29,004 bases of DNA, taken from a virus. Taxonomy: Duplodnaviria; Heunggongvirae; Uroviricota; Caudoviricetes. Of this stretch, positions 3,022 to 27,917 are shown piece after piece. How positions within the stretch are numbered: position 1 is the stretch's first letter; each line of letters starts with the position of its first letter. The stretch lies in the IMG/VR virus record IMGVR_UViG_643348547_000007; one strand, 5' to 3'. The notes under the pieces were generated by a model. It made no database searches. It was not told where the DNA came from and saw nothing but the letters and a program-made list of their open reading frames with translations. The position numbers were made by a program, and so were the translations under genes.

Positions 3022-3912
3022 TCAGGCTGCCAGATCATCGTTTCCGATGGAAGCATAATAAGCTTTTTCTGCTTCTGCCGGAGGAGTATGGCCCAGCCTT
3101 TCCAGCAATCGTCGATTGTTATACCAGTCCACCCACGTGAGTGTGGCCAGTTCCACTTCTGCACGGTTTTTCCAGCTCTTACGGTGTATTACCTCCGCTT
3201 TGTAAAGACCATTGATGCTCTCCGCCATCGCGTTGTCATACGAGTCGCCTGTACTTCCTGTTGATGCCAGTAATCCGGCTTCCTTAAGCCGCTGTGTGTA
3301 GGCCAGCGATACATACTGAGAACCTTTATCACTGTGATGGACCGTGCCGGACGGTCGACGGGCCCATAACGCCTGCTCCAGTGCATCCAGCACGAATGTC
3401 GTTTCCATGGACGATGAGACCCGCCACCCCACGATGTATCCGGCAAACACATCAATGATGAACGCCACATAGACGAAGCCCCGCCATGTGCTGACGTAAG
3501 TAAAATCAGCCACCCACAGCTGGTCAGGTCGTTCTGCCACGAACTGACGGTTTACGCGGTCGCCTGCGGCAACGGCTTTCCGGCTGATGGTCGTACGGAC
3601 CTTTTTACCCCGGAGAACACCGGCAAGTCCCATAACCGCCATGAGACGTGCCACAGTGCATCTGGCCACTCTGATACCTTCCCGTAACAACTGACGCCAG
3701 ACTTTACGCACACCGTATACCTTGTGATTTTCATCGTATACGCGCTGTATCTCTTTCTTCAGCCAGTCATCGCGCTGCGCACGGGCACTGCGTTTATCCG
3801 GATGATGTCGCTGTTGCTGACAGTGGTAATACGTTGACGGGGCAATATGCAGTTCGCTGCATAGCGGTCCGACCCCGTACTGCTCACGCAGCTTATCCAG
3901 CAGTGGCATCAT
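3022..3912 (-). CDS. IS629 OrfB (DDE transposase catalytic part, normally made as an OrfAB frameshift fusion), 296 aa
   Basis: ORF overlaps the orfA end in the -1 frame, as is typical of the IS3 family; DDE-type integrase-core sequence. Confidence 0.9.
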
Positions 3913-4235
3913 TTTTTCCAGAGGCGGTCGAACTCCGCCTTCGCAAAATAAGCGGAAGCCTGGCGAAGGATATCGTTACTGCGGCGCAGTTCACGATTTT
4001 CACGTTCCAGCTCTTTCAGACGCTGACGTTCAGCGGTGGTGAGCCCTCCATCACCGCCCCCGGTATCCCGCTCATGCTGGCGAACCCAGACACGCAGAGT
4101 CTCCGGCGTACAGCCAATCTTTGGAGCAATGGAACAAATTGTCGCCCATTGTGAGTCATATTCGCTCTGACTTTCCAGAACCATACGGACTGCCCGTTGA
4201 CGGACTTCGGGGGAAAAACGAGTATTTTTAGTCAT
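3909..4235 (-). CDS. IS629 OrfA (transposase N-terminal, HTH/leucine-zipper part), 108 aa
   Basis: [21 protein letters not shown]... translation; identical ORF present in the second IS copy at 28199-28525. Confidence 0.9.
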
Positions 4236-7645: not shown

Positions 7646-8245
7646 TCAGAACTTATAACCGACACCCACGATGAAACCGTCAGTGCGCCAGTCGCCACTG
7701 CCGGAGCCTTCATAAGCAATATCAATGGCCACGGATTCGGTCGGGTTAAACTGCACGCCAGCTCCCCACGCCAGAGACGTGTTGCTGTGGCGATCGTCAT
7801 CACTTCCGGTCAGCACATCGTGCGTTTTCCCCTTGTTGTCAGTTACGCGGAGATAATCCCCGGAGAACGTCGAAACACGGCTGTAAGCCACACCCGCCAT
7901 CGCATACGCGCTGAACCATTCATTCACGCGCACAGACGGCCCCGCCATTACGCTGAACCAGCGGTTACGCACGGAATCTTCATGCCAGCGGGTATCGCTG
8001 TAATGCGTTTTTTGTTCATCTTCTGCGTCGGCATAACTGAAAGACGTAATCAGCCCCAGCGTGTCCGTAAATTCATAACGGTATTTCACGTTAATCCCGT
8101 TCAGATTATCGCTTCCTGGCATATCAGTGTGGGTCTGAAGATACCCGGCGCTTAGTGTGGACTGATGCTCTGCTGCGCTCGCTGGCGTACCAGCGGCAAC
8201 CAGCCAGACTACTGCGGACAGAATAACAGCACATAATTTACGCAT
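7646..8245 (-). CDS. lom: Lom outer-membrane protein (Ail/Lom/PagC family beta-barrel), 199 aa with signal peptide
   Basis: N-terminal signal peptide; C-terminus ...VAIDIAYEGSGSGDWRTDGFIVGVGYKF matches lambda Lom as recalled; located between J and stf as in lambda. Confidence 0.9.
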   Translation of the reverse strand: MRKLCAVILSAVVWLVAAGTPASAAEHQSTLSAGYLQTHTDMPGSDNLNGINVKYRYEFTDTLGLITSFSYADAEDEQKTHYSDTRWHEDSVRNRWFSVMAGPSVRVNEWFSAYAMAGVAYSRVSTFSGDYLRVTDNKGKTHDVLTGSDDDRHSNTSLAWGAGVQFNPTESVAIDIAYEGSGSGDWRTDGFIVGVGYKF

Positions 8246-8275
8246 AATTACCTCTCGCTTTTCTGCAATAAAAAA

Positions 8276-8303
8276 GGCGTCATTTCTGACGCCCGTATTG
8301 GGG
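8276..8303 (-). terminator. Intrinsic terminator between J and lom (stem GGCGTCA/TGACGCC, then a U-run on the minus strand)
   Basis: Inverted repeat at 8286-8292 and 8297-8303 with loop TTTC; on the minus strand it is followed by TTTTTTTATT. Confidence 0.5.
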
Positions 8304-8312
8304 TTATAAAAT

Positions 8313-11300
8313 TCAGCTAATCGTGATGCCTGCAGTGGCTTTCTTCATCACCACAACCAGCAAATCGCTGATACTTGCTGTGGGATACCAGTCATTTACC
8401 AGCCATGCTGACACCGAAAACTCCAGCGTCATGTGACCGTGACCGGCAGGCATATCAATAACGCCACTGTAAATCAGCGTATTATCCAGCGCGGTACGGT
8501 TATAAATTTCAGCACCGTTTTTCCGCACTATCAGACGGCATGAGGAGTAAATATCAGTATGCTCTCTCTCATGTTTAGCGCCGCTGAATGCCACCGCCGG
8601 AATAACAATCTGCCGGTCAAACGGCTGATCGTCATAAATCCTGACGGTAATGGTCCCTGATGGCCACCGTTCCGGTGCACGGGAGTCACGGGGGAAAGCC
8701 TTACCCACTGTTTTAACGAGATCGCCTTCAATCTGGTTTGCAGACAGTTTCCCTCTGATGACACAGTTCTCGTTAATGGTGACATTATTGAGCGTGCCGG
8801 TATTCGCCGTGATGGCTCCACTGATATCCGCATTGCGGGCTGTCAGCCTGCCATCCGGCGTCAGGGAAAACGTCGGAGGATTGCCGGATGACGTGATGCT
8901 CACCGCAAACAGTCGCTTCAGGAACACGTCGTTCATGAACAGCTGATTCCCCTGCGCCACAAATAACGGCGTGGTGTTACCGTTCTCCGGAGTAATCATC
9001 GCAATGCGATCGGCCTGCAGCAGAATGTTACTCAGCGTCTGACCATCGACATCCTCGATCCCCGCGCCAATCCCGGCCACATACGGAATACCCTTCTTCG
9101 TTTTCTGCACCTTCAGCATATACATGGCATTCAGATTATCGCGCGTGTCTGACTGAACCCGCTGGATTTGCTGTATGGTCACGGCCTGGTCACCCAGTTT
9201 TTTATCCGTGGTCGAGGCAATTTCACTCCCTTTTTCATCCACGTACTGACGGACCTGTGCTATCTGCCGGGCGTTTTCTGACTGGCCCTGGCTGACTGTC
9301 TGCTTGATTTCACTTTGCTTTTTGTCCACGTACTGGCGGACCTGTGCTATCTGTCGGGTATTTTCCTCACTGCTCTGACTGACCGTCTGTGAGATTTCAC
9401 TGCTGACACGGTCCACTTTCTGACTCACCTGCGCGATGGCCAGCGTCTGATCCTCATTCTTTTTCGCAACCAGCTGCGTGAGGCTGTTTTCCGCCTCCCC
9501 GATTTTCCGGGTCACTTCCGCAATATCCGTGTCCATCCGCTGACGGATGTCTTCTTCCAGTTGTCCGATATTCTCTTCCAGTTGAGTGACATCCGATCGC
9601 AGGGCTGACGCATCAATGCGCTTTTTCAGTGCCTGCCCCAGCAGCGTCTCATCTATCAGACCACGGAAAAATTCCAGATACCCTTTTGCATCATTGCTGG
9701 CCTGCCCGCTGGCTTCCACAAATGCAGACTTGCCCACCAGGTTGACACTGCGCACATAAAACCAGAAATCCATCCCCGGCTTAATCCGATCGCCCTGGAC
9801 AGTCCACTGACTGCCGGTCCCCAGATAACGGGCAGATTTTTCCACCTGTGCCGTGTTCGTGATGCGTTTTTCTGAGAACCAGAATTCAAACTGTATCGTC
9901 GGATCATACACCGCAAGACGCGGGACCGCCGTTATCTGAAAATACCCCGGCGTCAGCTCAATGGTGGCGGGTTTTGCAGGCGCGTTAATCCGGAAGGTGG
10001 TGGTCGCAGGTTCGCCCTGCTGGCCGTAGCTGTTAATGGCCCGCACCGTCAGGGTGTATTCCCCCAGCGGCAGACCACTGAAACGGTGCTCCGTGTCTGC
10101 GGTGATGGCGGTGCTCACCAGACGGCTGTCTTCTCCGCTTCCGCTGGTCAGACGCAGACTGAAGCGCACACCCTTCACCACCCGCGGCGTGTCCCATTTC
10201 GCCTGTGCCAGATACTGACCGTCAGCTGCACTCACCTCCACCGTCAGGTGCTGCACTGCCGGTGGGATAACGCTGTTCAGGCTGCCTGACTGCGGCTCAA
10301 AGCGGGCACCGTTATCCACAATGGCTTCTTTTTCCGGTACGTGCTGCACCGCCGTGATGGCGAACGTGCCGTCCGTGTTTTCCCGGATGGAGACACAGCG
10401 GAACAGGCGACGACGCAGTGACGGCAGGGAGAGTCCCCACACCCCGTATGTCTCCACACCATCCGGCAGGGTGCTGACCTGTATCCGGTCAGGCGCGGGG
10501 TGTGCGGTGATGGCCACGCTCGCCGGCTTACCGCTGCCGTTAATCAGATTAACAGTGGCCGTGCCGGTCTCCGGCAGTGTCACCTCCCGGTCCAGCGTCA
10601 GGGTACGGCTGGCGGCATCGATGGACAGGACACGTCCGCCGGTCATGGTCCCGGCATAGTCGTTATCACAGATTTCAATGATGTCACCGGGTGTGTGCCG
10701 CAGCCCCTGAGACCCGAGCGTGAAATCCACCGTCTGCGTTTCCAGCAGTTCGGTCTTTATCACCCACAGCCCGGCACGGTGGGCCTGACCGCGGCTGGTA
10801 CAGCCGAACGCGTCCATCTTCAGCAGGTTGCGTCCGTAGCGCAGTATGGCTTCCGGGTCTTCCACCAGTTCCGTGGAGGTCTGCCAGCCGTTCTGCGGGT
10901 CGGTGTAATTCACCTCCACCGCCGTGTGCCGGTCCTTCAGGGCACTGAAGCTGTAGCGGAACCCCACGCCGTTATCATCCACCACCACATCGCTGTTGGT
11001 GTACGGCCACACCACATCCGACGGGCGGTCCTGAACGAACGTCAGCGTCTGACCGTTCCATACCGGCATACAGCGCATCGCAGAGCAGAAATCACTGAGA
11101 ACGTCCCACGCCTTACGCTGTTGTGCCAGGTACGCATTAAAGGTCATCCGCGGCTCGGTCCCCCCGAAACCATCCGGGACCGTCTGGTCGCAGTACTGCC
11201 CGATGGCATACAGCGCCCACTTGTCCACATCCGCCGCCCCCAGACGTTTTCCCATGCCGTAGCGCGGGTGAGTCAGCATGTCCCACAGGCACCAGGCCGG

Positions 11301-12113
11301 GTTGTTGCTGTATGCCGGTTTCAGACTGCCGTCCCAGATACCACTGTACGTGCGTTTTTCCGGGTCATAGTTTGACGGCACCTGGATGATGCGACCGCGG
11401 ATATGGTAGTTCACCGTCATCTGCTGGCCGCCGAACTGCTCCGCATCCACCTGCAGCCCCACAATGGCCGTGTTCGGGTAGCACTGTTTCACATCGATGA
11501 TTTCGGTGTATGACGACCACAGCGTCTTATTCTGCAGCTGGTCCGTGGTGCTGTCCGCCGTCTCCCTGACCATCCGGATGTTAAAGGGCCGGGGAGGCAG
11601 ATTATCCAGAATCACCGAGGCCAGGAACTGCGAGGTGGTCTTGCCGTTAATGGTGACATCCTTTTCCGTCACCCAGCGGCCATTACGCTGTAACTGAATC
11701 AGAATCCGGACAGAGGAAGGATTACGGTCGCCCTTTGACGTGGTCTCCACCAGTGACTGCACCCCGAAGGTAACCCGCAGGCGGTCAATGTTCGCGGACG
11801 TAATGGTGCGCGTCACCGGTTTTGCCTTCGTCACTTCCACGCCCAGTCCGGTTTCAGCTCCGGAGGACTCAAAGCCTTCCGGTGGTGTCTGCTCCTGCTC
11901 CCCGGCACGCCAGACCGCGGTCACACCGTGTATCACGGGATTGCCGTCCGTGTCCGTCAGTGGGGTTTTGTTCACCAGAATACTCTGCAGTCCCTTCACC
12001 GGACCTTCTATCGGTCCCTCACCAATCGCATCAATCACACTCATCATCTGCGTGGATTTGAGATTATCCTTCGCCTCACGAGGCGTGTGTGCCTTACCGC
12101 CACCTTTTCCCAT
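8313..12113 (-). CDS. J: Tail tip / host specificity protein J (central tail fibre), 1266 aa
   Basis: Collinear with lambda J along its length ([22 protein letters not shown]... N-terminus; [10 protein letters not shown] and C-terminal regions conserved), with an extra internal repeat-containing segment. Confidence 0.95.
9238..9410 (-). repeat. Two tandem copies of an imperfect ~87-bp repeat (plus a partial third upstream) inside J, encoding repeated [10 protein letters not shown](K/E)K-type motifs
   Basis: TCCACGTACTG(A/G)CGGACCTGTGCTATCTG... recurs at 9238 and 9323; the protein shows ...[25 protein letters not shown]...[19 protein letters not shown]... Confidence 0.55.
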
Positions 12114-12216
12114 ACAGCCTTCCCCTGAATAAATTAACCGCCACTTGCCATTCCGTACAGAAGTCGGATATCCTTCGCCCGAAAAGCATGAAACACATTT
12201 CTGCCATGCTAAAGAG

Positions 12217-12252
12217 AAACCCCGGTATCAGCAGATACCGGGGTTTTCTTTC
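12217..12252. terminator. Strong hairpin (10-bp stem CCCCGGTATC/GATACCGGGG, loop AGCA) flanked by T-rich runs on both strands; candidate bidirectional intrinsic terminator in the I-J intergenic region
   Basis: Perfect inverted repeat at 12220-12229 and 12234-12243; plus strand continues TTTTCTTTC; minus strand continues TTTCTCTTT. Confidence 0.55.
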
Positions 12253-12318
12253 ATGCCCACCGATAATCCTGTTGGTTAAAACCGGTAATGGCATAAAAAT
12301 TCTGAATATCTTCACATT

Positions 12319-12346
12319 TTCACAAACTGACTGTGGCGCGTATAAT
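12319..12346 (+). promoter_or_regulatory. Sigma70-like promoter candidate (TTCACA, 16-nt spacer, TATAAT) antisense to the tail operon
   Basis: TTCACA at 12319-12324 and a perfect TATAAT at 12341-12346, read directly; no experimental support. Confidence 0.35.
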
Positions 12347-12352
12347 TTCGCT

Positions 12353-12450
12353 GCGTTAATTTTTTTGTCGTGATATAAGAATAATTCCTTACACTTAATC
12401 TTCGTAACTCTCCCGCAGTTCCTGTCCGCGATCACTGCGGGATTTTTTTA
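12353..12450 (+). ncRNA. Candidate small RNA of about 100 nt, from the promoter-like element to the intrinsic terminator, in the I-J intergenic region
   Basis: Predicted start about 7 nt after the -10; ends at the terminator 12411-12450; no credible ORF or RBS inside; sits in a 343-bp gap between I and J that is not part of lambda's I-J arrangement as I recall it. Confidence 0.3.
12411..12450 (+). terminator. Intrinsic terminator on the plus strand (stem TCCCGCAG/CTGCGGGA, 16-nt loop, then TTTTTTT)
   Basis: Inverted repeat at 12411-12418 and 12435-12442, T-run 12443-12449; on the minus strand no U-run follows, so it is orientation-specific. Confidence 0.5.
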
Positions 12451-12456
12451 TTCTTT

Positions 12457-13137
12457 TTACCCCTGCCGCCCGATAACCACGACCTTTCCGCCCCCGCCTT
12501 CATCACGGGTGCTGATGTCCTGGGATATACGGCGGGAGCCAACCAGCATTTCCCCGTAAGGCACCGGCATCGGGTTCCCCTGGGCAATCATGTTATCCAG
12601 CGAGGAAAAGTACGTGTTCTGTCTGCCGTTATCCGTTGCGCGGTAATCCGGTGTTTTTGCCTTCGGGGCCAGCATCTGTGCCACACCGCCCAGTATCATG
12701 CTGGCCCCCAGTGAAAACAGCATCGTGGTGGCAGAAAAACCACCGGCTGCCAGGGCTGAACCCCATAACGCCATCGAGGCACCGGCCGTGAAGAAAGAGC
12801 CCACGATGGCTGCCGCCCCCAGCACAATCTGCAGTCCGCCCTTTCCGGCTCCGGCCAGTCGCGGCACAATGTGGATGACCGTTCCCTCACCCAGCTGTTC
12901 GTGAAGACGGGCGTACACCGCCTCCGGTGCCGTGTCATCACCGGCAATACGTATCTGGTACCAGCCTTCGTTCATCTGACGGCGAAAGCCCGGCATCTGC
13001 ATCGACAGGGCGCGAATGGCTTCCGCTGCCGTGTTCACATACAGGCTGAGGCGGCGGCCAAATCGTTGCAAATCCCCGTGAAGGCAGATGCGTGCCAGTG
13101 GCGGTGACGCCAGACAGAATGCGTTCGTCGTTGCCAT
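12457..13137 (-). CDS. I: Tail assembly protein I, 226 aa
   Basis: Matches lambda gpI from memory (ARICLHGDLQRFGRR, QNTYFSSLDNM, C-terminal GGG...VVVIGR). Confidence 0.9.
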   Translation of the reverse strand: MATTNAFCLASPPLARICLHGDLQRFGRRLSLYVNTAAEAIRALSMQMPGFRRQMNEGWYQIRIAGDDTAPEAVYARLHEQLGEGTVIHIVPRLAGAGKGGLQIVLGAAAIVGSFFTAGASMALWGSALAAGGFSATTMLFSLGASMILGGVAQMLAPKAKTPDYRATDNGRQNTYFSSLDNMIAQGNPMPVPYGEMLVGSRRISQDISTRDEGGGGKVVVIGRQG

Positions 13138-13778
13138 TTTTCGGAATACCTCTCCCGTTTACTCAGTTGTTCAGGCAGATGGTGAAGCAGCTCACCGTTG
13201 CCGCAGTAAATGGCGGCATGGTTCGGTACCGAAGCACCAAAGCAGCACAGCAGAATATCGCCCGCCTGTGCAGAGGACAGGGGCACCCGGTAAAAGCCGG
13301 TGACCGCCATATTGTCCAGGTAAAGGTTCTGACCGTTGCGCCACCAGTCATCCTCGCGATGAAAATCCGGCATTTCAGTCCCCGCCAGATGGTATGCATC
13401 CCGGAACAGCGTGTAACAGTCCGTCACCCCGTGCTCAAAGCGCCGTCCCGTCAGGTGCGGCACGCAGCGGAATTTGTGAATGTCACCCCGGCAGACCAGC
13501 CACCAGGGCAGTGCGCTTTTTATCTGCAGCCGCCGGTCAGCCTCGCTCAGCCAGGGCAGCCCACCGGGATGACTGTGGACCAGTGCCACAATCTCCCCCT
13601 GCATCTCTGCCCGCAGCCAGTCTTCCGGTGCGATACGAAAATACGCCTCCGGCTCTGCGGAAATATTCACACAAGGGATATACCGCTCCCCCTCCGGCGT
13701 GCTTATCACGAAGCCGCACGACTCCGCAGGCGCACACCGCCGGGCATGCGCCAGAATCGCTGATTCTGTCTGTGTCAT
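13035..13778 (-). CDS. K: Tail assembly protein K (JAB/MPN metalloprotease-like and NlpC/P60-like domains), 247 aa as the longest frame
   Basis: JAMM-type motif HSHPGG...SEAD and a Cys/His NlpC-P60-like region; positioned between L and I. The ORF overlaps I by 103 nt, so the true C-terminus is uncertain. Confidence 0.8.
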   Translation of the reverse strand: MTQTESAILAHARRCAPAESCGFVISTPEGERYIPCVNISAEPEAYFRIAPEDWLRAEMQGEIVALVHSHPGGLPWLSEADRRLQIKSALPWWLVCRGDIHKFRCVPHLTGRRFEHGVTDCYTLFRDAYHLAGTEMPDFHREDDWWRNGQNLYLDNMAVTGFYRVPLSSAQAGDILLCCFGASVPNHAAIYCGNGELLHHLPEQLSKRERYSEKWQRRTHSVWRHRHWHASAFTGICNDLAAASACM

Positions 13779-13783
13779 TGGAT

Positions 13784-14482
13784 TTACTGCGAAAGTTTGT
13801 TAATGGAAAGGAAACCGCCAAAATTAGCCACCATGCCGCGCATCTCACACCCGCGCATGCACTTGCTGCATCTGTCCTTACGGATATCCGTGGTGGGGTT
13901 GTCGAACTCATCCGCCACCGCAGGACCGTTATACCCGCATTCATCTCCCCGGTAATCCCACATACAGGTGTTCGCCAGCATGATGCGACCGGGAAACAGC
14001 GCCCCGTCCGTCTCGGTCGGTGTAGCCAGCACAAACGAGGCCGTCATGGCTGTCAGCTGCGACATCTGCTCCACCACCCAGCGGTCACTCAGCTCCTGCT
14101 CCGGGTCCGCCTCCGGATTGCCCGCAACGAAATTCACCGCATCCAGAAAACGGGCATACACCCGGCGGCGGACCACCGTGGCCCCCACCAGACTCTGCAG
14201 GTCTTCCGCCATCCCGGTGACCAGACCGAACAGATTGGACACCGTCAGCGACGGTCTGGCACTGCTGCCCCGGCCGTTCATCTCAAAGCCGCTGCCGTCA
14301 ATCGGGTATGCCTCATACTTACGCCCCTGCCAGGTGACCGGCTCCCCTTTTTCATTCAGCTCATTACAGAAAAAATACCGCTCACCACCCTGTACCGTCA
14401 GGTCGATTTCCCAGAGTACCACCCGCGGTGACTGCTCTGACTTAACCGACTCGTTCAGACTTTCTTCGCGAATATCCTGCAT
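13784..14482 (-). CDS. L: Minor tail protein L, 232 aa
   Basis: Lambda gpL-like, including the C-terminal cysteine cluster (CSKCMRGCE...). Confidence 0.95.
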   Translation of the reverse strand: MQDIREESLNESVKSEQSPRVVLWEIDLTVQGGERYFFCNELNEKGEPVTWQGRKYEAYPIDGSGFEMNGRGSSARPSLTVSNLFGLVTGMAEDLQSLVGATVVRRRVYARFLDAVNFVAGNPEADPEQELSDRWVVEQMSQLTAMTASFVLATPTETDGALFPGRIMLANTCMWDYRGDECGYNGPAVADEFDNPTTDIRKDRCSKCMRGCEMRGMVANFGGFLSINKLSQ

Positions 14483-14811
14483 CAGTTCACCACCTGCTTA
14501 AACTCCGCGCTGAACTCAACGCGCAACATCCCGACCCGCGCAGACCACCCGGCACAGGTCACCTTTATCTGCCGGTATGCATAGGGTGGCTTCCACAAAA
14601 ATGCCTTCCAGCCACCGTGCTCTGCCAGGAACGCTTCCAGATGCCGGGCCTCCTCCCGGGTCACGGAAAGCGTCACCCTGTATGTTTTCAGGTCAGCATT
14701 CAGCCCTGCCGCCATACGCTGTGAGTACCCGTCACCAAAACGCACTTCACGCACCGATGGCTGCGAGTTCACCTCCATATCCGGCTTCACTTTCCAGCGA
14801 AAGGTTTTCAT
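14482..14811 (-). CDS. M: Minor tail protein M, 109 aa
   Basis: Lambda gpM-like; stop/start overlap with L and with H, as expected for a coupled tail operon. Confidence 0.95.
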   Translation of the reverse strand: MKTFRWKVKPDMEVNSQPSVREVRFGDGYSQRMAAGLNADLKTYRVTLSVTREEARHLEAFLAEHGGWKAFLWKPPYAYRQIKVTCAGWSARVGMLRVEFSAEFKQVVN

Positions 14812-17369
14812 CGACCGCTCCCTGATAACAGACCGCCATCACGCAACTGCAGCCGGAGTTCATCCTGTGCCCCCTTGCGGGCCATGTCATACACCGCCTT
14901 CATCAGCTGCGACCCCGCCTGTCCGTTGATACCGTCGTTCTGAATCACCACGTGATTGTTCTGATTAAAATTAATACCTTCGGCCCGCCGCATCTGCGCC
15001 GGACTTCCGGCACCGCCGACATAACCACCTTCCGCATACCCGCGCATCAGACGATACAGGTTGCCGACACCAATCCGGCTGGTTGCCTCCTTCGTGAAGA
15101 CAAATTCACCACGGTGAACAATCCCCGCTGGCTCATATTTGCCGCCGGTTCCCGTAAATCCTCCGGTTGCAAAATGGAATTTCGCCGCAGCGGCCTGAAT
15201 GGCTGTACCGCCTGACGCGGATGCGCCGCCACCGGTAGCCCCGCCAATGGCGCTGCCGATACTCCCGACAATCCCCACCATTGCCTGCTTAAGCAGAATT
15301 TCTGTCATCATGGACAGCACGGAGCGGGTGAAGCTGCGCCAGTTCTGCTCACTGCCGGTCAGCATCGCCGCCATATTCTGCGCAATACCATCAAAGGTCT
15401 GCGTGGCAGCACTTTTAACCTGCGACATACTGTCCGTGGCACTCTCTTTCCACTCGCTCCAGCCGGACCTGAGGCCTGCCATCCAGTTCCCGCGAAGCAG
15501 GTCTTCAGCCGCCCAGGTCTTTTTCTGCTCTGACATGACATTATTCAGCGCCAGAGGATTATCGCCATACTGTTCCTTCAGGCGCTGTTCTGTGGCTTCC
15601 CGTTCTGCCTGCCGGTCAGTCAGCCCCCGGCTTTTCGCATCAATGGCGGCCCGTTTTGCCCGTTGCTGCTGTGCGAATTTATCCGCCTGCTGCGCCAGCG
15701 CGTTCAGGCGCTCCTGATACGTAACCTTGTCGCCAAGTGCAGCCAGCTGGCGTTTGTACTCCAGCGTCTCATCTTTATGCGCCAGCAGGGATTTCTCCTG
15801 TGCAGACAGCTGGCGACGTTGCGCCGCCTCCTCCAGTACCGCGAACTGACTCTCCGCCTTCCACAAATCCCGGCGCTGCTGGCTGATTTTCTCATTCGCT
15901 CCGGCATGCTTCTCCAGCGTCCGGAGTTCTGCCTGAAGCGTCAGCAGGGCAGCATGAGCACTGTCTTCCTGACGATCGCCCGCAGACACCTTCACGCCGG
16001 ACTGTTTCGGCTTTTTCAGCGTCGCTTCATAATCCTTTTTCGCCGCCGCCATCAGCGTGTTGTAATCCGCCTGCAGGATTTTCCCGTCTTTCAGTGCCTT
16101 GTTCAGTTCTTCCTGACGGGCGGTATATTTCTCCAGCGGCGTCTGCAGCCGTTCGTAAGCCTTCTGCGCCTCTTCGGTATATTTCAGCCGTGACGCTTCG
16201 GTATCGCTCTGCTGCTGCGCATTTTTGTCCTGTTGAGTCTGCTGCTCAGCCTTCTTTCGGGCGGCTTCAAGCGCAAGACGGGCCTTTTCACGATCATCCC
16301 AGTAACGCGCCCGCGCTTCATCGTTAACAAAATAATCATCCTTGCGCAGATTCCAGATGTCGTCTGCTTTCTTAAACGCAGCCTCTGCCTTAATCAGCAT
16401 CTCCTGCGCGGTATCAGGACGACCAATATCCAGCACCGCATCCCACATGGATTTGAATGCCCGCGCTGTCCTGTCTGCCCAGGTCTCCAGCGTGCCCATG
16501 TTCTCTTTCAGGCGGCGGGTCTGGTCATCAAACCCTTTCGTTGCGGCCTCGTTCGCCGCCTGCAATGCCCCGGTTTCATCGCCGGAACGCTGCAACTGAG
16601 CAACATACGCAATCTGCTCCGCCGTCACGTTATGGAACTGCTTCGCCATCGCAATCAGCCCCGACGTCGGGTCAGTGGTCAGTTTTCCGAAAGCCTCTGC
16701 AACCTTGTCCACCTCCACACCGGATGCAGAAGCAAAACGCGCGACACTCTGGTTGATGGCATCAAACTGTTCACCACCACGCACACCGGCATTCACCATG
16801 GCTGCCAGTGACTCACTCGCCTGGTTAAACGTCAGCCCTGCGGCCTGTCCGGCTCTGGAGAGCGTCAGCATGCGATCGGCAGTCAGTCCGGACTGATTAC
16901 CGGAAAGAACCAGGGTTTTATTAAACGCTGAAAGCGTGGAATCTCCCTGGTACCAGGCGTACACCAGCGCACCTGTCGCCACCGCCAGCGAGGTGACCCC
17001 GACCATCGGCAGGGTGATCGCACCGGCAAGCCCCCTGAACATGGGGATCATCCCGCCGAAGGAGTCCTTCACCTGACCGCCCTGTTGCAGCAGGATCAGC
17101 CAGGGATTCTGACCACCGGCAAGCTGCGTGGCGATATCCGTAAACTGTGCGGGCAGGGTTCGCATGGCCGCTTTATACTGCCCGACGGAAATCCCGGCTT
17201 TTTGTGCAGCCAGCGCCTGGCGGCTCAGGCCCTGTTCAACAGCACTGGCGGTTTTTCTGGCGTCGGTATCCAGACCTGAAAAATGACGCCTTACCCGGCT
17301 CATCTGCTCATCGAAACGGACAGCATCCAGACTAAGGTCAATAACAAGATCACCAACCGGCTGGGACAT
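14808..17369 (-). CDS. H: Tail tape measure protein H, 853 aa
   Basis: Same length as lambda gpH as I recall it; coiled-coil-rich centre and glycine-rich C-terminal region; position between T and M. Confidence 0.95.
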   Translation of the reverse strand: MSQPVGDLVIDLSLDAVRFDEQMSRVRRHFSGLDTDARKTASAVEQGLSRQALAAQKAGISVGQYKAAMRTLPAQFTDIATQLAGGQNPWLILLQQGGQVKDSFGGMIPMFRGLAGAITLPMVGVTSLAVATGALVYAWYQGDSTLSAFNKTLVLSGNQSGLTADRMLTLSRAGQAAGLTFNQASESLAAMVNAGVRGGEQFDAINQSVARFASASGVEVDKVAEAFGKLTTDPTSGLIAMAKQFHNVTAEQIAYVAQLQRSGDETGALQAANEAATKGFDDQTRRLKENMGTLETWADRTARAFKSMWDAVLDIGRPDTAQEMLIKAEAAFKKADDIWNLRKDDYFVNDEARARYWDDREKARLALEAARKKAEQQTQQDKNAQQQSDTEASRLKYTEEAQKAYERLQTPLEKYTARQEELNKALKDGKILQADYNTLMAAAKKDYEATLKKPKQSGVKVSAGDRQEDSAHAALLTLQAELRTLEKHAGANEKISQQRRDLWKAESQFAVLEEAAQRRQLSAQEKSLLAHKDETLEYKRQLAALGDKVTYQERLNALAQQADKFAQQQRAKRAAIDAKSRGLTDRQAEREATEQRLKEQYGDNPLALNNVMSEQKKTWAAEDLLRGNWMAGLRSGWSEWKESATDSMSQVKSAATQTFDGIAQNMAAMLTGSEQNWRSFTRSVLSMMTEILLKQAMVGIVGSIGSAIGGATGGGASASGGTAIQAAAAKFHFATGGFTGTGGKYEPAGIVHRGEFVFTKEATSRIGVGNLYRLMRGYAEGGYVGGAGSPAQMRRAEGINFNQNNHVVIQNDGINGQAGSQLMKAVYDMARKGAQDELRLQLRDGGLLSGSGR

Positions 17370-17763
17370 ATCTCACACCTCCCGGAATCCCCGCTGAAGC
17401 CATCATTAATGCGGCATCATCCACCATGACATCCGCCACATCCACAGACGATAAAATATCGCGCCCTCCGTCCCCACCGAACCGGACGCCTCCGGCAAGT
17501 CCTGCCGCTTTCTGCATCAGCATTTTGTCCTCATCCGGCCTCTCCACCTGCTCTTCCTCATGCCGGGGGACAAGCAGACTGAAATCAGAGGGATGCATAT
17601 CCGGATCGCAAAAAAACAGGCTGAGTACAGCGTACGTCAGCCCGGAAAAATGCATATCCAGCTGGGTATCCTGAAAATAATGCGTGCGGTAAAAACGGTG
17701 CCAGTCGGCATATTCGGTGGATGTCATCCCGGCAAGCATGGCGCGCCAGTCGGGTCTCCCCAT
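17350..17763 (-). CDS. T: T portion of the G-T tail assembly chaperone, expressed by a -1 frameshift from G
   Basis: The frame continues from the G slippery site in the -1 register (GKVFDGELNFALRLAREMGRPDWRAM...), giving the G-T fusion spanning 17350-18221. Confidence 0.85.
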   Translation of the reverse strand: MGRPDWRAMLAGMTSTEYADWHRFYRTHYFQDTQLDMHFSGLTYAVLSLFFCDPDMHPSDFSLLVPRHEEEQVERPDEDKMLMQKAAGLAGGVRFGGDGGRDILSSVDVADVMVDDAALMMASAGIPGGVRYVPAGW

Positions 17764-17789
17764 CTCACGCGCCAGTCTGAGGGCAAAGT

Positions 17790-18221
17790 TCAGCTCGCCG
17801 TCGAAGACTTTCCCGCAGAAAAATCATCATCAGTCAGCGTGTTATTTTTCGCCACTTCAGTAATATCAGTATCCGGACGAACAGCTTCGATCATCCCGGA
17901 CAGGCACAACACCACGTCTTCCGCCCGGGCAATGGCATCGGCAGGCCAGGTGGTGAGCACTTCCTGCTCTATCTTCATCACGGCCTCATTCATTGACGGT
18001 GACTGCGTTTTCTGTGGATGGTTATGCCACAGGGACATCGCCACCAGAAACGCGCCGGTTCTGACAAGATCTTCCACACTCACCTGCAGGTTGCCGCTGG
18101 CTTCAGCCTCTTCTGCCCGCCGTTTCAGGAGGGCAAGATGCTCAATACGCTGCAGCGCAGACAGCTCAGAAAGCGTGACGGATACACCGTTATATTCAAA
18201 TTGTTCTGTTTTCAGGAACAT
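17790..18221 (-). CDS. G: Tail assembly chaperone G, 143 aa
   Basis: MFLKTEQFEYNGVSVTLSELSALQRIEHLAL... matches lambda gpG from memory. Confidence 0.9.
   Translation of the reverse strand: MFLKTEQFEYNGVSVTLSELSALQRIEHLALLKRRAEEAEASGNLQVSVEDLVRTGAFLVAMSLWHNHPQKTQSPSMNEAVMKIEQEVLTTWPADAIARAEDVVLCLSGMIEAVRPDTDITEVAKNNTLTDDDFSAGKSSTAS
17808..17814 (-). other. Programmed -1 ribosomal frameshift slippery heptamer G GGA AAG at the 3' end of G
   Basis: Minus-strand GGGAAAG lies 5 codons before the G stop, the same heptamer and placement as lambda G-T as recalled; the downstream -1 frame is open into T. Confidence 0.8.
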
Positions 18222-18239
18222 CGCTTATCTCTCAGCTCT

Positions 18240-18986
18240 TTAGCCACCCGGCACATTATTAACGGTAATTTCAGCCACCGCAGCAAACTGACCATTACCG
18301 GAAATCACAGGGATGCTGACTTTTCCATCCTTAACCCCCGTCACAGTAATCGTCATATCTTTCACGCTAATGGTGGCTTTTGATGGATCGGCGGAAATCG
18401 CCCTGAATGTCTTATCCGTTGCATTTTCCGGTTCCACAGTAACGGTCAGGGTGGTTGTTTTCCCTTTTTCAACCGTACCTGTCGGCGTTACCTTAATCGC
18501 AGTGACCGGCGTAATTTTGCTGCGTTCTTCCGCTACAGAAGGTTTACCCACGTTAGTGACTTTCACCGTGCGGGTGATCACTTCTTTCGCCGTCACGGCC
18601 TTACCGATACTGCTGACCCAGCCACGAAACACATCCACCGTGCCATTCGGAAAACGGATTTTATAGGCCCGGACATCGCCGCTTTCAAACCAGCCTATAA
18701 GCCCTTTCTGGCCTTCCTCTCCCGGTTTCCAGGCTAGCGTAAAACTGGTATCACCTGCAGATTTCTGCCCCTGCCCGGTCGCGCTCCAGTCCGCGTCTTC
18801 ATCATCCAGGTAGTTATCATCGTAGGATTCAGCCGTCATCTCGCCCGGCGTCAGATCCTTCACCTTAGCCAGTCGCTGCCAGTCATCGTCTGACAACGGG
18901 TTTGCATAAGCATCAGCCTTGCCGTTGTAAACCCACAGAGTGGTACCGGCACCTTTTACCGGCTCCAGGGGATTTGGTGTTGCCAT
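18240..18986 (-). CDS. V: Major tail tube protein V (with C-terminal Ig-like domain), 248 aa
   Basis: Lambda gpV-like ([10 protein letters not shown]..., [40 protein letters not shown]). Confidence 0.95.
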
Positions 18987-18993
18987 ATCGTCC

Positions 18994-19389
18994 TCACATC
19001 TCGTATGTAATGGAATAAGTCAGATCTGCAGAACTCCATAACGCCATATCGTCATCACGACGATACTCATAGCCCTGCGTAACCATCGTGGTAATCAGTC
19101 CTGCCAGTGCCGGGATCGCAGTCATCGCCGGGTAAATCCGGCTTTCCATCCACTGATCAAGCTCTGAATCCGGTACCTGTGCCGGTAAAAACACCTCAAT
19201 ATGCAGCGTGGCCCGCCAGGTATCTGCATCCAGCTCTTCACCGGTATACTCTGCATCCGTCAGATAAACCGCGATCGCAGGAAAATCCTCTTCGTCAAAA
19301 ACAACGGGGCGACCATCAAACAGCGTCGCCCCGTGTTCATGCTGCTCGAGTGCATCCAGCACTGCGGCACGAATGTCAGTGTGTTTCAT
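18994..19389 (-). CDS. U: Tail terminator protein U, 131 aa
   Basis: Lambda gpU-like; same length as I recall for lambda; stop/start overlap with Z. Confidence 0.95.
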
Positions 19390-19919
19390 CGTTTTATCGC
19401 AATCCTCAGTTGTTGTTTCAGCGCGTATGCCAGTTCTTTAGGCAGGCGTTCACGCCGGATACGGTCAATATTCTCATCAAATGCCTGTTTCAGTGGGGCC
19501 GCCATCGGGATTTTCACCACATCAATAGGGTAACGGTTTTTCCCGGCCACACGCTGCATGACATGCCAGCGACCGTTTTTTAATCGCTGAATGAATGCCC
19601 GCTGATACCGATGCTGACCGGCTTTAAGTATGCTGTTCGGACGACGGCCCAGCATCCTGATCCCCAGCTTAATCACTGGAAGATCACCGCGGTTAACGAT
19701 AATTTTTGCGTTCGGATTTCTGACCGTCGCCCGTTTCAGTCTGGACCGTTCCTTTACCAGTTTCCGGCGTACCTTTGTCTCCCGGGCAACCTGTGATGAA
19801 GACTGATTAATCGCCGTTGTGGCCACGCGGTTAATGGCCATTGCTGAAGCCGCCGGAATGGCGTTTTTACGAACCCGGCTCAGATTATCAATCGCCTGAT
19901 CAAGCCCTTTTATCGCCAT
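19386..19919 (-). CDS. Z: Tail completion protein Z, 177 aa
   Basis: Lambda gpZ-like, basic protein between FII and U. Confidence 0.9.
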   Translation of the reverse strand: MAIKGLDQAIDNLSRVRKNAIPAASAMAINRVATTAINQSSSQVARETKVRRKLVKERSRLKRATVRNPNAKIIVNRGDLPVIKLGIRMLGRRPNSILKAGQHRYQRAFIQRLKNGRWHVMQRVAGKNRYPIDVVKIPMAAPLKQAFDENIDRIRRERLPKELAYALKQQLRIAIKR

Positions 19920-19934
19920 AATTTCACCCTGCGT

Positions 19935-20288
19935 TTATCGTCGCCGGTTAACAGCGGGTGGTTGCCCACGGTTGAGCCAGAGATAACAGCTTCCCCCGTC
20001 ATCCGGAGAAACACGATCCACCCAGAACATCTCGCCGTTAATGGTCAGCGTGTCACCACGCCGCACGGCACGCACCGTATCCGTCCGCACAAATAATGAC
20101 GGGCTGCTTCCTTCAATACGGACCCCGCCACCGGCAAAACCCAGCGACTCCGGATCGTCAAAAACCCCCTGAACTTCGCCGCCACGTTGTGCTCCGGAGG
20201 TGAACTGCGCACGGATCCCCATCACTTCAACAATCGTGCTGTCCACCCCGGCAAGGGCAGCATCAAAGGCATTCTGAAAATCACGCAT
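19935..20288 (-). CDS. FII: Head-tail joining protein FII, 117 aa
   Basis: Lambda gpFII-like (GSSPSLFVRTD...VDRVSPDDGGSC.LWL.RG.PPAVNRRR). Confidence 0.9.
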   Translation of the reverse strand: MRDFQNAFDAALAGVDSTIVEVMGIRAQFTSGAQRGGEVQGVFDDPESLGFAGGGVRIEGSSPSLFVRTDTVRAVRRGDTLTINGEMFWVDRVSPDDGGSCYLWLNRGQPPAVNRRR

Positions 20289-20664
20289 GCTCAGCCGTTC
20301 CGTGCTGTATCATGGCTGTCGCCAGTGGTGATGGCACCATAACACGCATGCCCCGGTACGTCAGTTCAACGGGACGGCCTGTCTCCGGGCAATACCCCAT
20401 CACATGCAGGCATTTCCGCACACGGACCGCTTTAACATCATCCGTAGCATCAGTGTTGTGCAACTGCTCACCATCGTCTGTGTGATTTTGATCAGCCCCG
20501 CTCTCATCAGAGTGCATAATGCCCTCCGGGGAAACAGCAAGCTCCTCTTCCCACTCAGACACACGTTGAGCAATATCCGCAGCACTCCCCGACATATCCG
20601 CCTCGCGCCCCAGCAGGCCAGCCAGTTGACGAAGACGATTCAGATTTTCTTCTTTTGTTGCCAT
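20281..20664 (-). CDS. FI: DNA-packaging / head completion protein FI-like, about 127 aa from ATG 20664
   Basis: Sits between E and FII as in lambda; acidic central region; start chosen at the ATG preceded by AGGAGG rather than the track's upstream start at 20712. Confidence 0.7.
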   Translation of the reverse strand: MATKEENLNRLRQLAGLLGREADMSGSAADIAQRVSEWEEELAVSPEGIMHSDESGADQNHTDDGEQLHNTDATDDVKAVRVRKCLHVMGYCPETGRPVELTYRGMRVMVPSPLATAMIQHGTAEHA

Positions 20665-20715
20665 CTCAGCCTCCTGTGAAAAAAGACACGGGGGCATTTC
20701 GCCCCCGCTCACGGA

Positions 20716-21744
20716 TTATTTCACCTGTACCACCACAAACTCATCCGGATCCGGCAGCACCATCAGCGGTGCGGACTGCGTCATGGTGAATTCACGGGCC
20801 GGATCGCCCACAGTCAGCCAGTGTTTCGGATAACGGGAAGAGGCCACCACACCTTCGGACAACGCCTGCGCATCCTGAATGGCACCATAGCAACGAATGC
20901 CCTCTGCTGCCGTATTCCCCAGGACCAGTGTGCCCTCCGGCAGATAACGTTTTTCGGTACCGTCCTCTGCCACATAAGACGTTTTCGCCACCACAATGGC
21001 CAGATCGCCGTAATACCCCTTGAAGGACACCACCGCCCCCAGGTCTTTCACTGCCGTTTCGAGTTGTGAATTTGAGCCGCGACGGGTATCCAGTTTTTCG
21101 CGGAACAGCTTAAAGCCATTCAGCAGACGCCAGACCGTACCGTCCATAATGGCGATATTCACAAGGCCGCTGGCCTGATCGCAGTAGAGGTCAATATCAT
21201 GCGTCGGATCAAACGTATCACGGTCCTGCTCAGACCATTTTTTACCGTCAGCCTGCTCAATGTTATTTCCTTCAGAGCGCCCGAAATCCACCTCGACAGT
21301 ATCAAACTGATCCCCTTCCATGGTGTATTTGCCATACAGCACGGCATTCACCGCCTGCATTTCTTCCACCTGGACAATGGCGTGCTCTTCCTGTTTGAGG
21401 TTATCGGTAATGATACGCAGACGACGGTAGGCCGGGTCGTTCAGCTGAGCCGGATCTTCACCAGGAAGGCGCTCAACCGCCTGCTGGTAATTAAATTCGT
21501 GTTTGGGCTTGACGTAGCCCGGACGTAACACGCGGGTTTCACCACCGCGATGGCGAAGCACTTTTCCTTCAACGATCGGGGAGACATAGGCCGCCACCGG
21601 CGTTTTTCCGGTAATTTTGTCCAGCATCACCTCTTCGGTGTGGAAATTCACCGTACGGCGGAAAAACAGCTCCAGAAACAGCGCACGGAATTTCACTTTT
21701 TGTTCGGTATAACCGAGTAACTGGCGGGTCGTAAACAATCCCAT
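20716..21744 (-). CDS. E: Major capsid protein E, 342 aa
   Basis: Collinear with lambda gpE (KLDTRRGSNS.LETAVKDLG..., GDPAREFTM.QSAPLM.L.DPDEFV). Confidence 0.95.
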   Translation of the reverse strand: MGLFTTRQLLGYTEQKVKFRALFLELFFRRTVNFHTEEVMLDKITGKTPVAAYVSPIVEGKVLRHRGGETRVLRPGYVKPKHEFNYQQAVERLPGEDPAQLNDPAYRRLRIITDNLKQEEHAIVQVEEMQAVNAVLYGKYTMEGDQFDTVEVDFGRSEGNNIEQADGKKWSEQDRDTFDPTHDIDLYCDQASGLVNIAIMDGTVWRLLNGFKLFREKLDTRRGSNSQLETAVKDLGAVVSFKGYYGDLAIVVAKTSYVAEDGTEKRYLPEGTLVLGNTAAEGIRCYGAIQDAQALSEGVVASSRYPKHWLTVGDPAREFTMTQSAPLMVLPDPDEFVVVQVK

Positions 21745-21801
21745 AAATCAGTTCCTTTCATTAAGAAATCAGTCAGGCCAACGCGGTGGCCTGATAACGT
21801 G

Positions 21802-22149
21802 TTACGGCAGCGCCGCGTGACTCAGGGCACTGCCGGTAAAGGCGTTGGCCTTTTTGTGTTCATCCACACTTTCAGGCCAGCGGATTGCCTCCGTCGCAAA
21901 GGTCCCCGACTTGTAATACGTCAGCACCGCCTCTGTGCCTTCAAGCGGCAGTACCAGTATGCCAACCGCACTACCGGCTTTCTGTCCGTCCCAGACCACC
22001 AGTTTCCCGGTGGCCCCATCCAGCATCAGGGGTGTCAGTGCCGGTGTTGCCGAGGAAATCCCGCTGCTGCCTGTGGCGGTGTGAGCCGGATCATTACCGG
22101 CAAAAATACGTACTTCCGCACGCTGTTCAGTGATGGTTTTCGTTACCAT
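21802..22149 (-). CDS. D: Capsid decoration protein D, 115 aa
   Basis: Lambda gpD-like (DPAHTAT...TPLMLD...YKSGTF). Confidence 0.9.
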   Translation of the reverse strand: MVTKTITEQRAEVRIFAGNDPAHTATGSSGISSATPALTPLMLDGATGKLVVWDGQKAGSAVGILVLPLEGTEAVLTYYKSGTFATEAIRWPESVDEHKKANAFTGSALSHAALP

Positions 22150-22185
22150 ATTGTAAAAACCTCATATTGATGGTCAGCACTGACT

Positions 22186-25273: not shown

Positions 25274-25476
25274 AACCTCACTCCCAGCGGACGACGGCGA
25301 CGGCGGGTTGTCCCCAGTACCGACTCCGCATCATTGATCGCCCGGTTAAGCTCATCCAGAGAAGCTGCCGTATATTCAATTCTGCGACCATCTTTCTGGA
25401 CAGACACCACCCGTTTACCGGTTAATAAATCAAGGCGCGCCTGACGCAGCGCCTGCAGTTCAGCGACTGTAACCAT
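25270..25476 (-). CDS. W: Head-tail connector protein W, 68 aa
   Basis: Same length as lambda gpW as I recall it; start overlaps the A stop region. Confidence 0.9.
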   Translation of the reverse strand: MVTVAELQALRQARLDLLTGKRVVSVQKDGRRIEYTAASLDELNRAINDAESVLGTTRRRRRPLGVRL

Positions 25477-27388: not shown

Positions 27389-27869
27389 CGAGTAAATCCG
27401 GTAATTTATCCCCCGCCCGCGCACACTGATTTGCCCCCTTCGCAATAAGGGTTTTCAGATGGTCAAGATGGCGCGGTGTTAAATCAGGAAACTGTCGCTG
27501 CATGGATAAAGGGATGGAATCAAGCGTACTGGATAACGCCATTGCCAGCTTGCTGAGGGCAAAAATACAGAACCCGGTGTCAATAAGTTTTCCTTTTGAC
27601 ACCTCATTTTTTAACTGCTGTGTAACAGCCTGTTCTGCTGTCAGTTCCCATCTGGCAATAAGCAATTTCTCCTCATAGTCGTCTTCGCTATCGCCATCAG
27701 GCACATCGTTTTTACTTCTTCTCAGATACGATATGTAAAAATCGCGCCAGGCATCCAGATCCAGTTGCCCTCGCTTATTCGATATCGGGGCACCCGGCAA
27801 TTTCTGCAATCTGCGAAGCTGGCGATCGGTCAGACTTAAATGCCTGGCAACTTCAGTCTGCGTAGCCAC
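27360..27869 (-). CDS. nu1: Terminase small subunit (Nu1-type) with N-terminal HTH; GTG start
   Basis: C-terminal two-thirds resemble lambda Nu1; the N-terminal DNA-binding region differs from lambda; GTG at 27867-27869 with GAGG upstream; 3' end overlaps A. Confidence 0.8.
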   Translation of the reverse strand: MATQTEVARHLSLTDRQLRRLQKLPGAPISNKRGQLDLDAWRDFYISYLRRSKNDVPDGDSEDDYEEKLLIARWELTAEQAVTQQLKNEVSKGKLIDTGFCIFALSKLAMALSSTLDSIPLSMQRQFPDLTPRHLDHLKTLIAKGANQCARAGDKLPDLLDEYIRATTE

Positions 27870-27917
27870 TCCTCACCTCGCAAAAAACTCTCACCTCACA
27901 ATCACAACAAAACCGGT

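Follow-up and report, generated by a model that had tools for sequence, protein, structure and literature searches.

A predicted PasB/EcOnc22-24-type small RNA gene in the I-J gap of a lambda-like prophage, antisense to the tail operon

The 29,004-nucleotide (nt) Caudoviricetes record IMGVR_UViG_643348547_000007, referred to here at its full length as the window, carries a lambda-like tail operon on its minus strand, and the tail assembly gene I and the tail fibre gene J of this operon are separated by a 343-bp spacer. We consider it very likely that this gap holds a self-contained, horizontally carried small RNA (sRNA) gene, a “moron,” that belongs to the PasB/EcOnc22-24 family and lies antisense to the tail operon. 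The original prediction had proposed a candidate prophage sRNA at this position and, from the sequence alone, had not assigned the locus to a named one. The candidate stands, in that homologues have already been detected experimentally in pathogenic Escherichia coli; aligned along the whole mature RNA, the window is 71% identical to PasB and 70% identical to the copy in the Sakai prophage Sp15. A name can also be given, by a probe match and an alignment. The locus appears to be a genuine regulatory RNA gene of a known kind, and it opens no new category.

PasB (E2348CN_0006) is an 83-nt RNA of prophage PP6 in enteropathogenic E. coli (EPEC) O127:H6 E2348/69 (NC_011601.1, 1466343->1466261; PMC8550237, table S6). 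It was detected by RIL-seq, in which interacting RNAs are ligated and sequenced, and by Northern blot, and it is Hfq dependent (Pearl Mizrahi et al. 2021, PMC8550237). Its position falls within the 240-bp I-J gap of E2348/69, antisense to both genes (the tail assembly gene ends at 1466255 and gpJ starts at 1466496). The reverse complement of the published Northern probe, AATCCCGCAGTGATCGCGGAGCT (PMC8550237), matches the window at 12425-12444 in 20/23 positions, and the spacers of E2348/69 and the window can be aligned from the promoter block through the terminator. The two genes occupy the same gap in the same orientation, with the 3' end abutting the I stop codon, and the stretch that runs from a palindromic box to the -10 element (12296-12346 in the window) is nearly identical, with three differing positions. 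They also share GCGTTA, a T-run, a motif of the UUAAUCUUC type, and an identical terminator that includes the probe site. They differ in the A-rich run, in the bases flanking the conserved motifs, and, by 5 nt, in the length of the terminator loop. The spacers themselves differ as well, since that of E2348/69 has a short left module, whereas that of the window has a long one.

The family has also been recorded in enterohaemorrhagic E. coli (EHEC) O157:H7 Sakai, where EcOnc22 (Sp15), EcOnc23 (Sp14), and EcOnc24 (Sp11) were found as homologous Hfq-crosslinked RNAs by crosslinking and analysis of cDNA (Hfq-CRAC; Tree et al. 2014, PMC4104026). On a Northern blot, EcOnc22 migrates at ~85 nt, and the lack of hfq destabilises it (PMC4104026). 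In Sp15, Sp14, and Sp11, the probe shared by EcOnc22, EcOnc23, and EcOnc24 maps to the plus strand of the I-J gap, inside the homologous RNA body. The EcOnc coordinates in the 2014 paper lie ~128 nt below those of NC_002695.2, a shift that presumably stems from an older genome version. From the table coordinates, EcOnc22 was at first placed in the left module of the spacer, and this placement was rejected because the probe sequence is that of the PasB-homologous RNA. The Sakai RNAs resemble that of the window in locus, strand, box, GCGTTA-type start, AAUAACUCC, GUUAAUCUUC, and terminator stem. In contrast to the window, their -10 element reads AATAAT and the -35 element TTCACA is missing.

All of the published RNAs of the family sit in I-J gaps, antisense to the tail operon. 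Judged by sequence, PasB and EcOnc22-24 are one and the same family, and the predicted sRNA of the window is a member of it. The locus type has thus been found twice by experiment under two names, PasB in EPEC and EcOnc22-24 in EHEC, and it is absent from Rfam and RefSeq. The PasB papers do not link the two: Zhu et al. 2026 make no mention of EcOnc, and the table of Pearl Mizrahi et al. notes no EHEC homologue. In the literature library searched, the EcOnc22-24 names turned up, beyond Tree et al. 2014, in one review table only.

A covariance-model search against sRNA families, which had been suggested as a check on the candidate, was run and gave no name. At the gathering threshold, Rfam 15 produced no match to the sRNA locus in the window, and at E values up to 10 on 12000-12600 it returned generic terminator-like noise (STnc310, CopA, and others), far below thresholds. 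It was likewise without a match at two reference loci (L002 and L011). The family has no Rfam model, not even at the reference loci, and a search of this type therefore cannot name the RNA; a covariance model derived from the present alignment would close the annotation gap in Rfam and RefSeq. The AgvB and AsxR anti-sRNAs (RF02702, RF02703) were a first lead. They resemble the predicted window sRNA in being short, prophage-borne, and Hfq binding, in combining a conserved 3' part with a variable 5' part, and in their occurrence in lambdoid prophages of pathogenic E. coli. However, they are 51-60 nt in length, their sequence is unrelated, their genes occupy the moron site downstream of PR', and neither Rfam model matches; this lead was rejected.

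The sRNA gene takes up the right-hand module of the spacer (Table 1), and BLAST matches in Stx-converting and other lambdoid phages span only positions 177/180-343 of the spacer query. The promoter-like element TTCACA-16-TATAAT of the original prediction was confirmed in place, and it is the top promoter-like site of the 20-kb structural region (8000-27900), which holds six promoter-like sites versus 11.2 expected from shuffles. The plus-strand intrinsic terminator proposed at 12411-12450 is present too, with its stem and T7, and it ends 7 nt from the gene I stop codon. From the start predicted for this promoter (P1) to the end of the T-run, members of the family measure 90-104 nt (90 nt in Sp15). 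The window position equivalent to the 5' end of PasB in E2348/69 is ~12366, which would give 84 nt, and a transcript from the possible second promoter (P2) would be ~83 nt, matching the reported size of PasB. The Hfq-CRAC clusters, placed with the inferred coordinate offset, begin 4-6 nt past the P1 start. They also contain the U-run, and this favours initiation at P1 followed by processing. The expectation of one or two independent plus-strand antisense transcripts of ~100 nt holds for one of them, by homology to PasB and EcOnc22-24, but fits less well in length, as the measured homologues are ~83-85 nt versus 97 nt predicted.

Table 1. Features of the I-J spacer and its flanking genes (positions are those of the window)
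Feature	Position	Strand	Basis
I-J intergenic spacer, 343 bp, two independently recombining modules	12114-12456	.	ORFs, PHROGs, ten-spacer alignment with mosaic left/right modules
Right module: complete predicted PasB-family sRNA gene (operator, promoter, RNA, terminator)	12293-12456	+	BLAST, alignments
CRP-like 22-mer AATTCTGAATATCTTCACATTT; core TCTGA-N6-TCACA 12301-12316, centre 12308.5	12298-12319	+	One mismatch to TGTGA-N6-TCACA
Promoter P1, TTCACA-16-TATAAT, predicted start near G12353	12319-12346	+	11/12 consensus positions
Alternative -10 TAATTT (TAnnnT form), possible promoter P2, start near 12367-12370	12357-12362	+	Nearly invariant GTTA and T-run
Predicted primary transcript, 97 nt from P1	12353-12449	+	Alignment to 83-nt PasB
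AAG-AAU-AAU, (A-R-N)3 run, candidate Hfq distal-face site	12377-12385	+	A-rich run in all variants
Candidate single-stranded seed region: UUCCUUA 12385-12391, UUAAUCUUC 12395-12403	12385-12403	+	Most conserved unpaired columns, 51 variants
Intrinsic terminator and candidate Hfq-binding 3' end: stem CCCGCAG 12412-12418 / CTGCGGG 12435-12441, then A and U7 (12443-12449)	12412-12449	+	Pattern scan, folding
Left module, long type, non-coding, nearly invariant	12114-12292	.	1446/5426 E. coli genomes
Weak promoter-like site TTGCCA-18-TATCCT, sole possible source of a second plus-strand RNA	12145-12174	+	9/12 match
Bidirectional terminator-like hairpin, 13-bp perfect stem 12217-12229/12234-12246, loop AGCA	12217-12252	.	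A-rich and T-rich flanks; fold z -6.7 (+), -5.6 (-)
Central tail fibre / host specificity gene J	8313-12113	-	PHROGs phrog_31, E=0
Tail assembly gene I	12457-13137	-	phrog_4244 E 5.6e-88, phrog_32 E 1.8e-79

Comparison of I-J spacers across lambdoid prophages, a further check named with the original prediction, shows that promoter, RNA body, and terminator recur together, beyond what chance would give, in 144 phage and prophage copies. The sample comes from an exact-pattern scan of IMG/VR (at least 120 loci) together with phage and genome loci, which gave 144 usable copies with 51 distinct RNA sequences; the search pattern imposed the right half-site TCACA of the box, and the left half-site and extra paralogous copies were not imposed. 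Among the matches listed, 126 loci have the flanking signatures of I and J. The common order begins with an A-run, TCTGA-N6-TCACA, 24 nt, the -10 element, GCGTTA (121/144), and a T-run of 5-9. It continues with a variable segment, an A-R-N run, (C/U)UCCUU, variable bases, UUAAUCUUC, variable bases, the stem CCCGCAG/CTGCGGG, an A, and T6-10. The -10 hexamer is TATAAT in 76 copies, AATAAT in 33, TATCAT in 20, and CATAAT in 4, with few others; it reads nATAAT or TATCAT in 135 of the 144, whereas the -35 element TTCACA is kept in only 90. GTTA and the T-run that follows it are nearly invariant.

The A-rich run, which reads AACAAAAACAAC in E2348/69, follows the A-R-N rule for Hfq (Tree et al. 2014, PMC4104026) and is a candidate distal-face site. 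The candidate seed region lies between this run and the terminator, in agreement with the position just upstream of the terminator that has been proposed for the PasB seed (Zhu et al. 2026, bioRxiv 10.64898/2026.05.13.724894). RNAalifold on the 51 variants predicts the terminator stem as the only structure, which suggests that the RNA is mostly single-stranded. The stem is essentially invariant, with three variants losing one pair each. We take UUCCUUA to resemble the anti-Shine-Dalgarno end of 16S rRNA, and this likeness suggests that the RNA may pair with ribosome-binding sites.

We regard the window allele as a common, previously undescribed sequence variant of the PasB family. The longest exact run that it has in common with PasB is 25 nt, and megablast with PasB therefore misses alleles of this type. 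With the 83-nt PasB as the query, megablast finds 956 of 5426 complete E. coli genomes, all with at least 90% identity and none of the window type, and with the window RNA region it finds 800 of the 5426 (~15%), with 649 records at one mismatch. Thus, the window allele is about as common as canonical PasB, and it was missed by the BLAST settings used for PasB mapping. The search of Zhu et al. 2026 used a word size of 28 and >75% query coverage, and the PasB variants in it differ by few nucleotides (bioRxiv 10.64898/2026.05.13.724894); that survey presumably did not take in the window allele. A diverged allele that escapes BLAST in this way means that the distribution of the family, including extraintestinal and commensal strains, is probably underestimated. 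The phages PhiR5_1 and JLK-2012, phages that convert to Stx1a and Stx2c, and E. albertii also carry RNA of the window type. When the GTDB species representatives were scanned for the pattern, E. albertii and two short contigs from unrelated genera were the only matches, and nothing pointed outside Escherichia. The two contigs are from Parendozoicomonas haliclonae (L014, 460 bp) and Streptomyces flavalbus (L016, 3408 bp), and the cassette in them is most likely assembly contamination.

What the RNA may do can be approached through the EPEC data on PasB (PMC8550237). On Hfq, PasB has 37 distinct RNA partners by RIL-seq, 30 of which are coding sequences (CDS) or 5' untranslated regions, and it is the second RNA in 99-100% of the chimeric fragments, which is an sRNA signature. 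Less than 2% of the partner fragments come from the accessory genome and >98% are core-genome RNAs. PasB fragments numbered 1820 under the non-activating condition (overnight static lysogeny broth [LB]) versus 258 under the activating condition (exponential growth in Dulbecco's modified Eagle medium [DMEM]), both at 37 °C. Its mean RNA-seq count was 482-1082, versus ~5 for tail gene I and ~15 for J. PasB is thus abundant while I and J are nearly silent, which indicates that the lysogen produces the sRNA without late-operon expression. Its log2 fold change is given as -6.8 in one sheet of table S2 and as -2.4 in another (PMC8550237); from the signs of other sRNAs, our reading is that the former compares the hfq mutant with the wild type and the latter the activating with the non-activating condition. 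No RNA on the tail-operon strand was reported from the I-J gap in the EPEC RIL-seq data.

By the same scheme, in a lysogen of the window prophage, with the late operon silent, host RNA polymerase would initiate at the strong sigma-70 promoter (-10 at 12341-12346) or possibly at a second start ~15 nt downstream, and transcription would stop at the plus-strand terminator just short of the I stop codon. The product would be a largely unstructured RNA of ~84-97 nt with an A-R-N run, UCCUU, UUAAUCUUC, a 7-bp terminator stem, and a U7 tail. By homology, it would bind Hfq and pair in trans with host mRNAs, mostly of the core genome, via the single-stranded region upstream of the terminator. The RNA body differs from that of PasB in E2348/69, and the target set may therefore differ as well. 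For this strain, we infer expression, the seed, control by CRP, and the role of the second hairpin of the spacer.

In the late transcript, the I-J spacer has full complementarity to the sRNA gene, and the two units are transcribed towards each other, an arrangement that would also suit a role in cis. In that case, the RNA would be chiefly an antisense regulator of the late operon, pairing with the I-J part of the late mRNA and controlling J expression or mRNA stability, or the late mRNA would titrate the sRNA on induction; the position conserved in 126 loci could reflect such a local function. We think this unlikely. The RNA overlaps no CDS or ribosome-binding site, ending 7 nt from the I stop codon and starting ~240 nt before J, and the RNA body varies greatly among phages with similar I and J genes. 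Furthermore, PasB in EPEC is abundant when I and J are nearly silent. The lack of CDS overlap, together with the core-genome origin of >98% of the Hfq-ligated partner fragments, argues for a trans-acting sRNA rather than for an antisense regulator of the tail genes.

Upstream of P1 lies the palindromic box that recurs throughout the family. The half-sites TCTGA and TCACA are invariant in 144/144 copies, whereas the 6-nt spacer between them takes seven forms, which is the pattern expected of a site for a dimeric DNA-binding protein, and the palindrome probably binds a regulator of this kind. The core in the window, TCTGA-ATATCT-TCACA, matches TGTGA-N6-TCACA in 9/10 core positions, and the 22-mer matches the textbook CRP consensus, AAATGTGATCTAGATCACATTT, in 14/16 non-spacer positions. 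By this textbook consensus the palindrome is a putative CRP site, and cAMP-CRP is our best guess for the regulator; expression would then be linked to conditions that are poor in glucose or stationary. Circumstantially, PasB reaches a higher level in overnight static LB than in DMEM, and that of the CRP-repressed Spot 42 changes in the opposite direction. The invariant CRP-like operator offers a directly testable idea on how the family is controlled.

Several points weigh against this account of the gene and its control. Expression, size, Hfq dependence, and the many RNA partners were all shown by others and on homologues only, and no function or validated target has been reported for any member of the family (Zhu, Shabalina and Storz 2026, bioRxiv 10.64898/2026.05.13.724894). 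TATAAT predicts a start ~15 nt upstream of the 5' end that was measured for PasB (83 nt), a difference that may reflect either the start site or processing. The terminator stem shows no covariation in the 51 variants, among which it barely varies. With respect to CRP, the palindrome has its centre at -44.5 relative to the P1 start, away from the canonical positions for activation by CRP (-41.5 or -61.5); from the start of the weaker, putative P2 (~12369), it would be at about -60.5. Cores of the CRP type with one mismatch number 2 in the 29-kb window versus 1.15 expected, which is not beyond chance. The LB and DMEM conditions differ in growth phase and oxygen too, and thus do not single out CRP.

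The two modules of the spacer recombine. In the ten-spacer alignment, phages of the PPompW type join a window-type left module to an E2348-type RNA, and PhiR5_1 joins a short left module to a window-type RNA. One locus (L065; IMGVR_UViG_2728369607_000007, minus strand, ~1235-320) has an I-J gap of ~920 bp in which four PasB-like genes follow one another in tandem; each of them has a separate TCTGA-N6-TCACA box, promoter, and terminator and a body unlike the others. Three tandem copies are present in L055 and L060 and two in L018, L069, and L089, and one array copy has a different terminator stem, CTCCCGT...ACGGGAG. The arrays indicate that the cassette is a duplicable unit and, with the mosaic bodies, suggest that phages shuffle sRNA seed regions. 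The cassette resembles the “morons” of lambdoid phages (Juhala et al. 2000, cited by Tree et al. 2014, PMC4104026) in that it inserts additional DNA, equipped with a promoter and a terminator, between two neighbouring genes of lambda. It differs from them in that it carries an RNA gene, whose transcription opposes that of the late operon, and in that it occurs in up to four tandem copies. It is possible, and we offer this tentatively, that the I-J gap is a dedicated cassette site for diversifying Hfq-dependent sRNAs, at which the operator, promoter frame, and terminator are kept, the body is swapped by recombination, and up to four copies accumulate. Under such a scheme, the window allele would have its own targets, expression would follow carbon status, and a Q-sensitive terminator would silence J, lom, and the tail fibre genes in lysogens.

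The surrounding minus-strand operon reads, by PHROGs, tape measure (14808-17369), M, L, K (13035-13778), I, J, lom (7646-8245), and tail fibre genes. In RefSeq, gene I is shorter (582 nt) in the related prophages of IAI39 and E2348/69. In lambda, I ends at 15444 and J starts at 15505, a gap of 60 bp, which agrees with the statement in the original prediction that lambda has no gap comparable to this one. The PHROGs assignments of the flanking genes and the null results on open reading frames (ORFs) also bear out the claim that the gap lacks a credible ORF: the three ORFs that cross it (113 aa on the minus strand; 94 aa and 44 aa on the plus strand) have no Pfam match, and the best PHROGs match is not significant (E=0.14, for the 94-aa ORF). 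The spacer is 100% identical to that of the E. coli IAI39 prophage, and as a query it is covered at >=80% in 1445 of the 5426 complete E. coli genomes. RefSeq annotates nothing in this 343-bp spacer.

The 113-aa and 94-aa ORFs, together with the small hypothetical proteins annotated at this place in some phage records, could be taken to mean that the spacer is the remnant of a protein-coding moron, with the promoter and terminators as leftovers or products of chance. This is highly improbable. The gap ORFs match no Pfam or PHROG family, indels within the family are not multiples of three (for example, the T-run of 5-9), and conservation tracks the promoter, the RNA motifs, and the terminator, not a reading frame. 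Moreover, the homologues are proven RNAs.

The long left module is at least 99% identical in 1442 records, and this near-invariance leaves coding and covariation tests without power. Many other spacers have a shorter left module of ~70 bp; among the matches listed, short spacers (~240-260 bp) account for 75 loci versus 47 of the long type. The GC-rich hairpin with T-runs on both strands, predicted at 12217-12252, was found as described, with a 13-bp stem between A-rich and T-rich flanks, and on the minus (tail-operon) strand it reads as a hairpin followed by UUUCUCUUU. The pattern scanner did not list it, probably, in our reading, because the T-run pairs with the A-run. The short spacers have a different hairpin, GGCACCC-CGGA-GGGTGCC, which is followed by a T-run only when read on the tail-operon strand; the scanner lists this hairpin as a terminator, and the spacer alignment shows a compensatory C-G to T-A change in it. 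Since the T-run of the short type is on the tail-operon side only, the feature shared by the two types is an intrinsic terminator on that strand, between the sRNA promoter and J. For the second hairpin of the window, termination on the tail-operon strand is accordingly a better reading than the 3' boundary of another plus-strand sRNA, although it would also stop plus-strand transcripts. Such a terminator probably serves to keep transcription that has not been modified by Q out of J, lom, and the tail fibre genes, and it would be overridden by Q antitermination in lytic growth.

A second plus-strand transcript, ending at 12252, had also been thought possible. The left module would then encode an sRNA of ~75 nt, running from a start near 12181 to the hairpin. 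The segment 12181-12258 has a very stable fold that ends in the hairpin and UUUUCUUUC, a weak promoter-like site (9/12) precedes it, and the left module is near-invariant in 1446 genomes. However, that site is the sole candidate source of such an RNA, the left module has no match above noise in Rfam, and the EPEC and EHEC reports contain no RNA from the left side of the gap. The probe identifies EcOnc22-24 as PasB homologues, with coordinates that fit after the inferred shift of ~128 nt. In spacers of the short type, only ~45 nt separate J from the hairpin, which leaves no room for an equivalent promoter, and the T-run is on the other strand only; the left module itself offers no sequence variation to test. 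We therefore find no support for this transcript and judge a second sRNA to be quite improbable, with termination on the tail-operon strand the preferred role of the hairpin. We also considered divergent minus-strand transcription, from a promoter served by the conserved box to the hairpin, and rejected it, as no convincing -10/-35 pair was seen by eye, none came from the scanner, and RIL-seq reports no RNA on that strand from the gap.

Two IMG/VR loci are natural variants of the long left module with an intact sRNA cassette. In L110, the hairpin at 12217-12252 is precisely deleted between TTTCT repeats, and in L042, unrelated DNA with a minus-strand ORF takes the place of all that lies left of the equivalent of window position 12266; the start of this ORF looked like that of an insertion sequence (IS) transposase gene. 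In one genome (H95; NZ_CP032791.1, 2133831-2133943), the long left module is represented by its first 112 bp alone, in a place annotated as “tail assembly protein,” and this looks like a rearranged or misannotated spacer. In phages PhiR12_1 (L006) and Stx2a_WGPS8 (L009), an antirepressor-like gene lies between L and K (locus ~3033-3168). Transcripts from this insert would cross K and I into the terminator before J, and they could partly explain the presence of that terminator.

The J protein has 1266 aa in the window and 1230 aa in the IAI39 prophage with the identical spacer (L001, 10308-14000). A J that differs at its C terminus beside an identical spacer indicates that the window is another prophage, or a second copy in IAI39, with more mosaicism in this region. 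We also found two identical matches (120.2 bits each) to the ALIL pseudoknot, a frameshift element of IS3-family transposases, at 3838-3954 on the minus strand and 28480-28596 on the plus strand. This inverted pair on both sides of the structural region suggests that the same insertion sequence is present twice, flanking ~24 kb.

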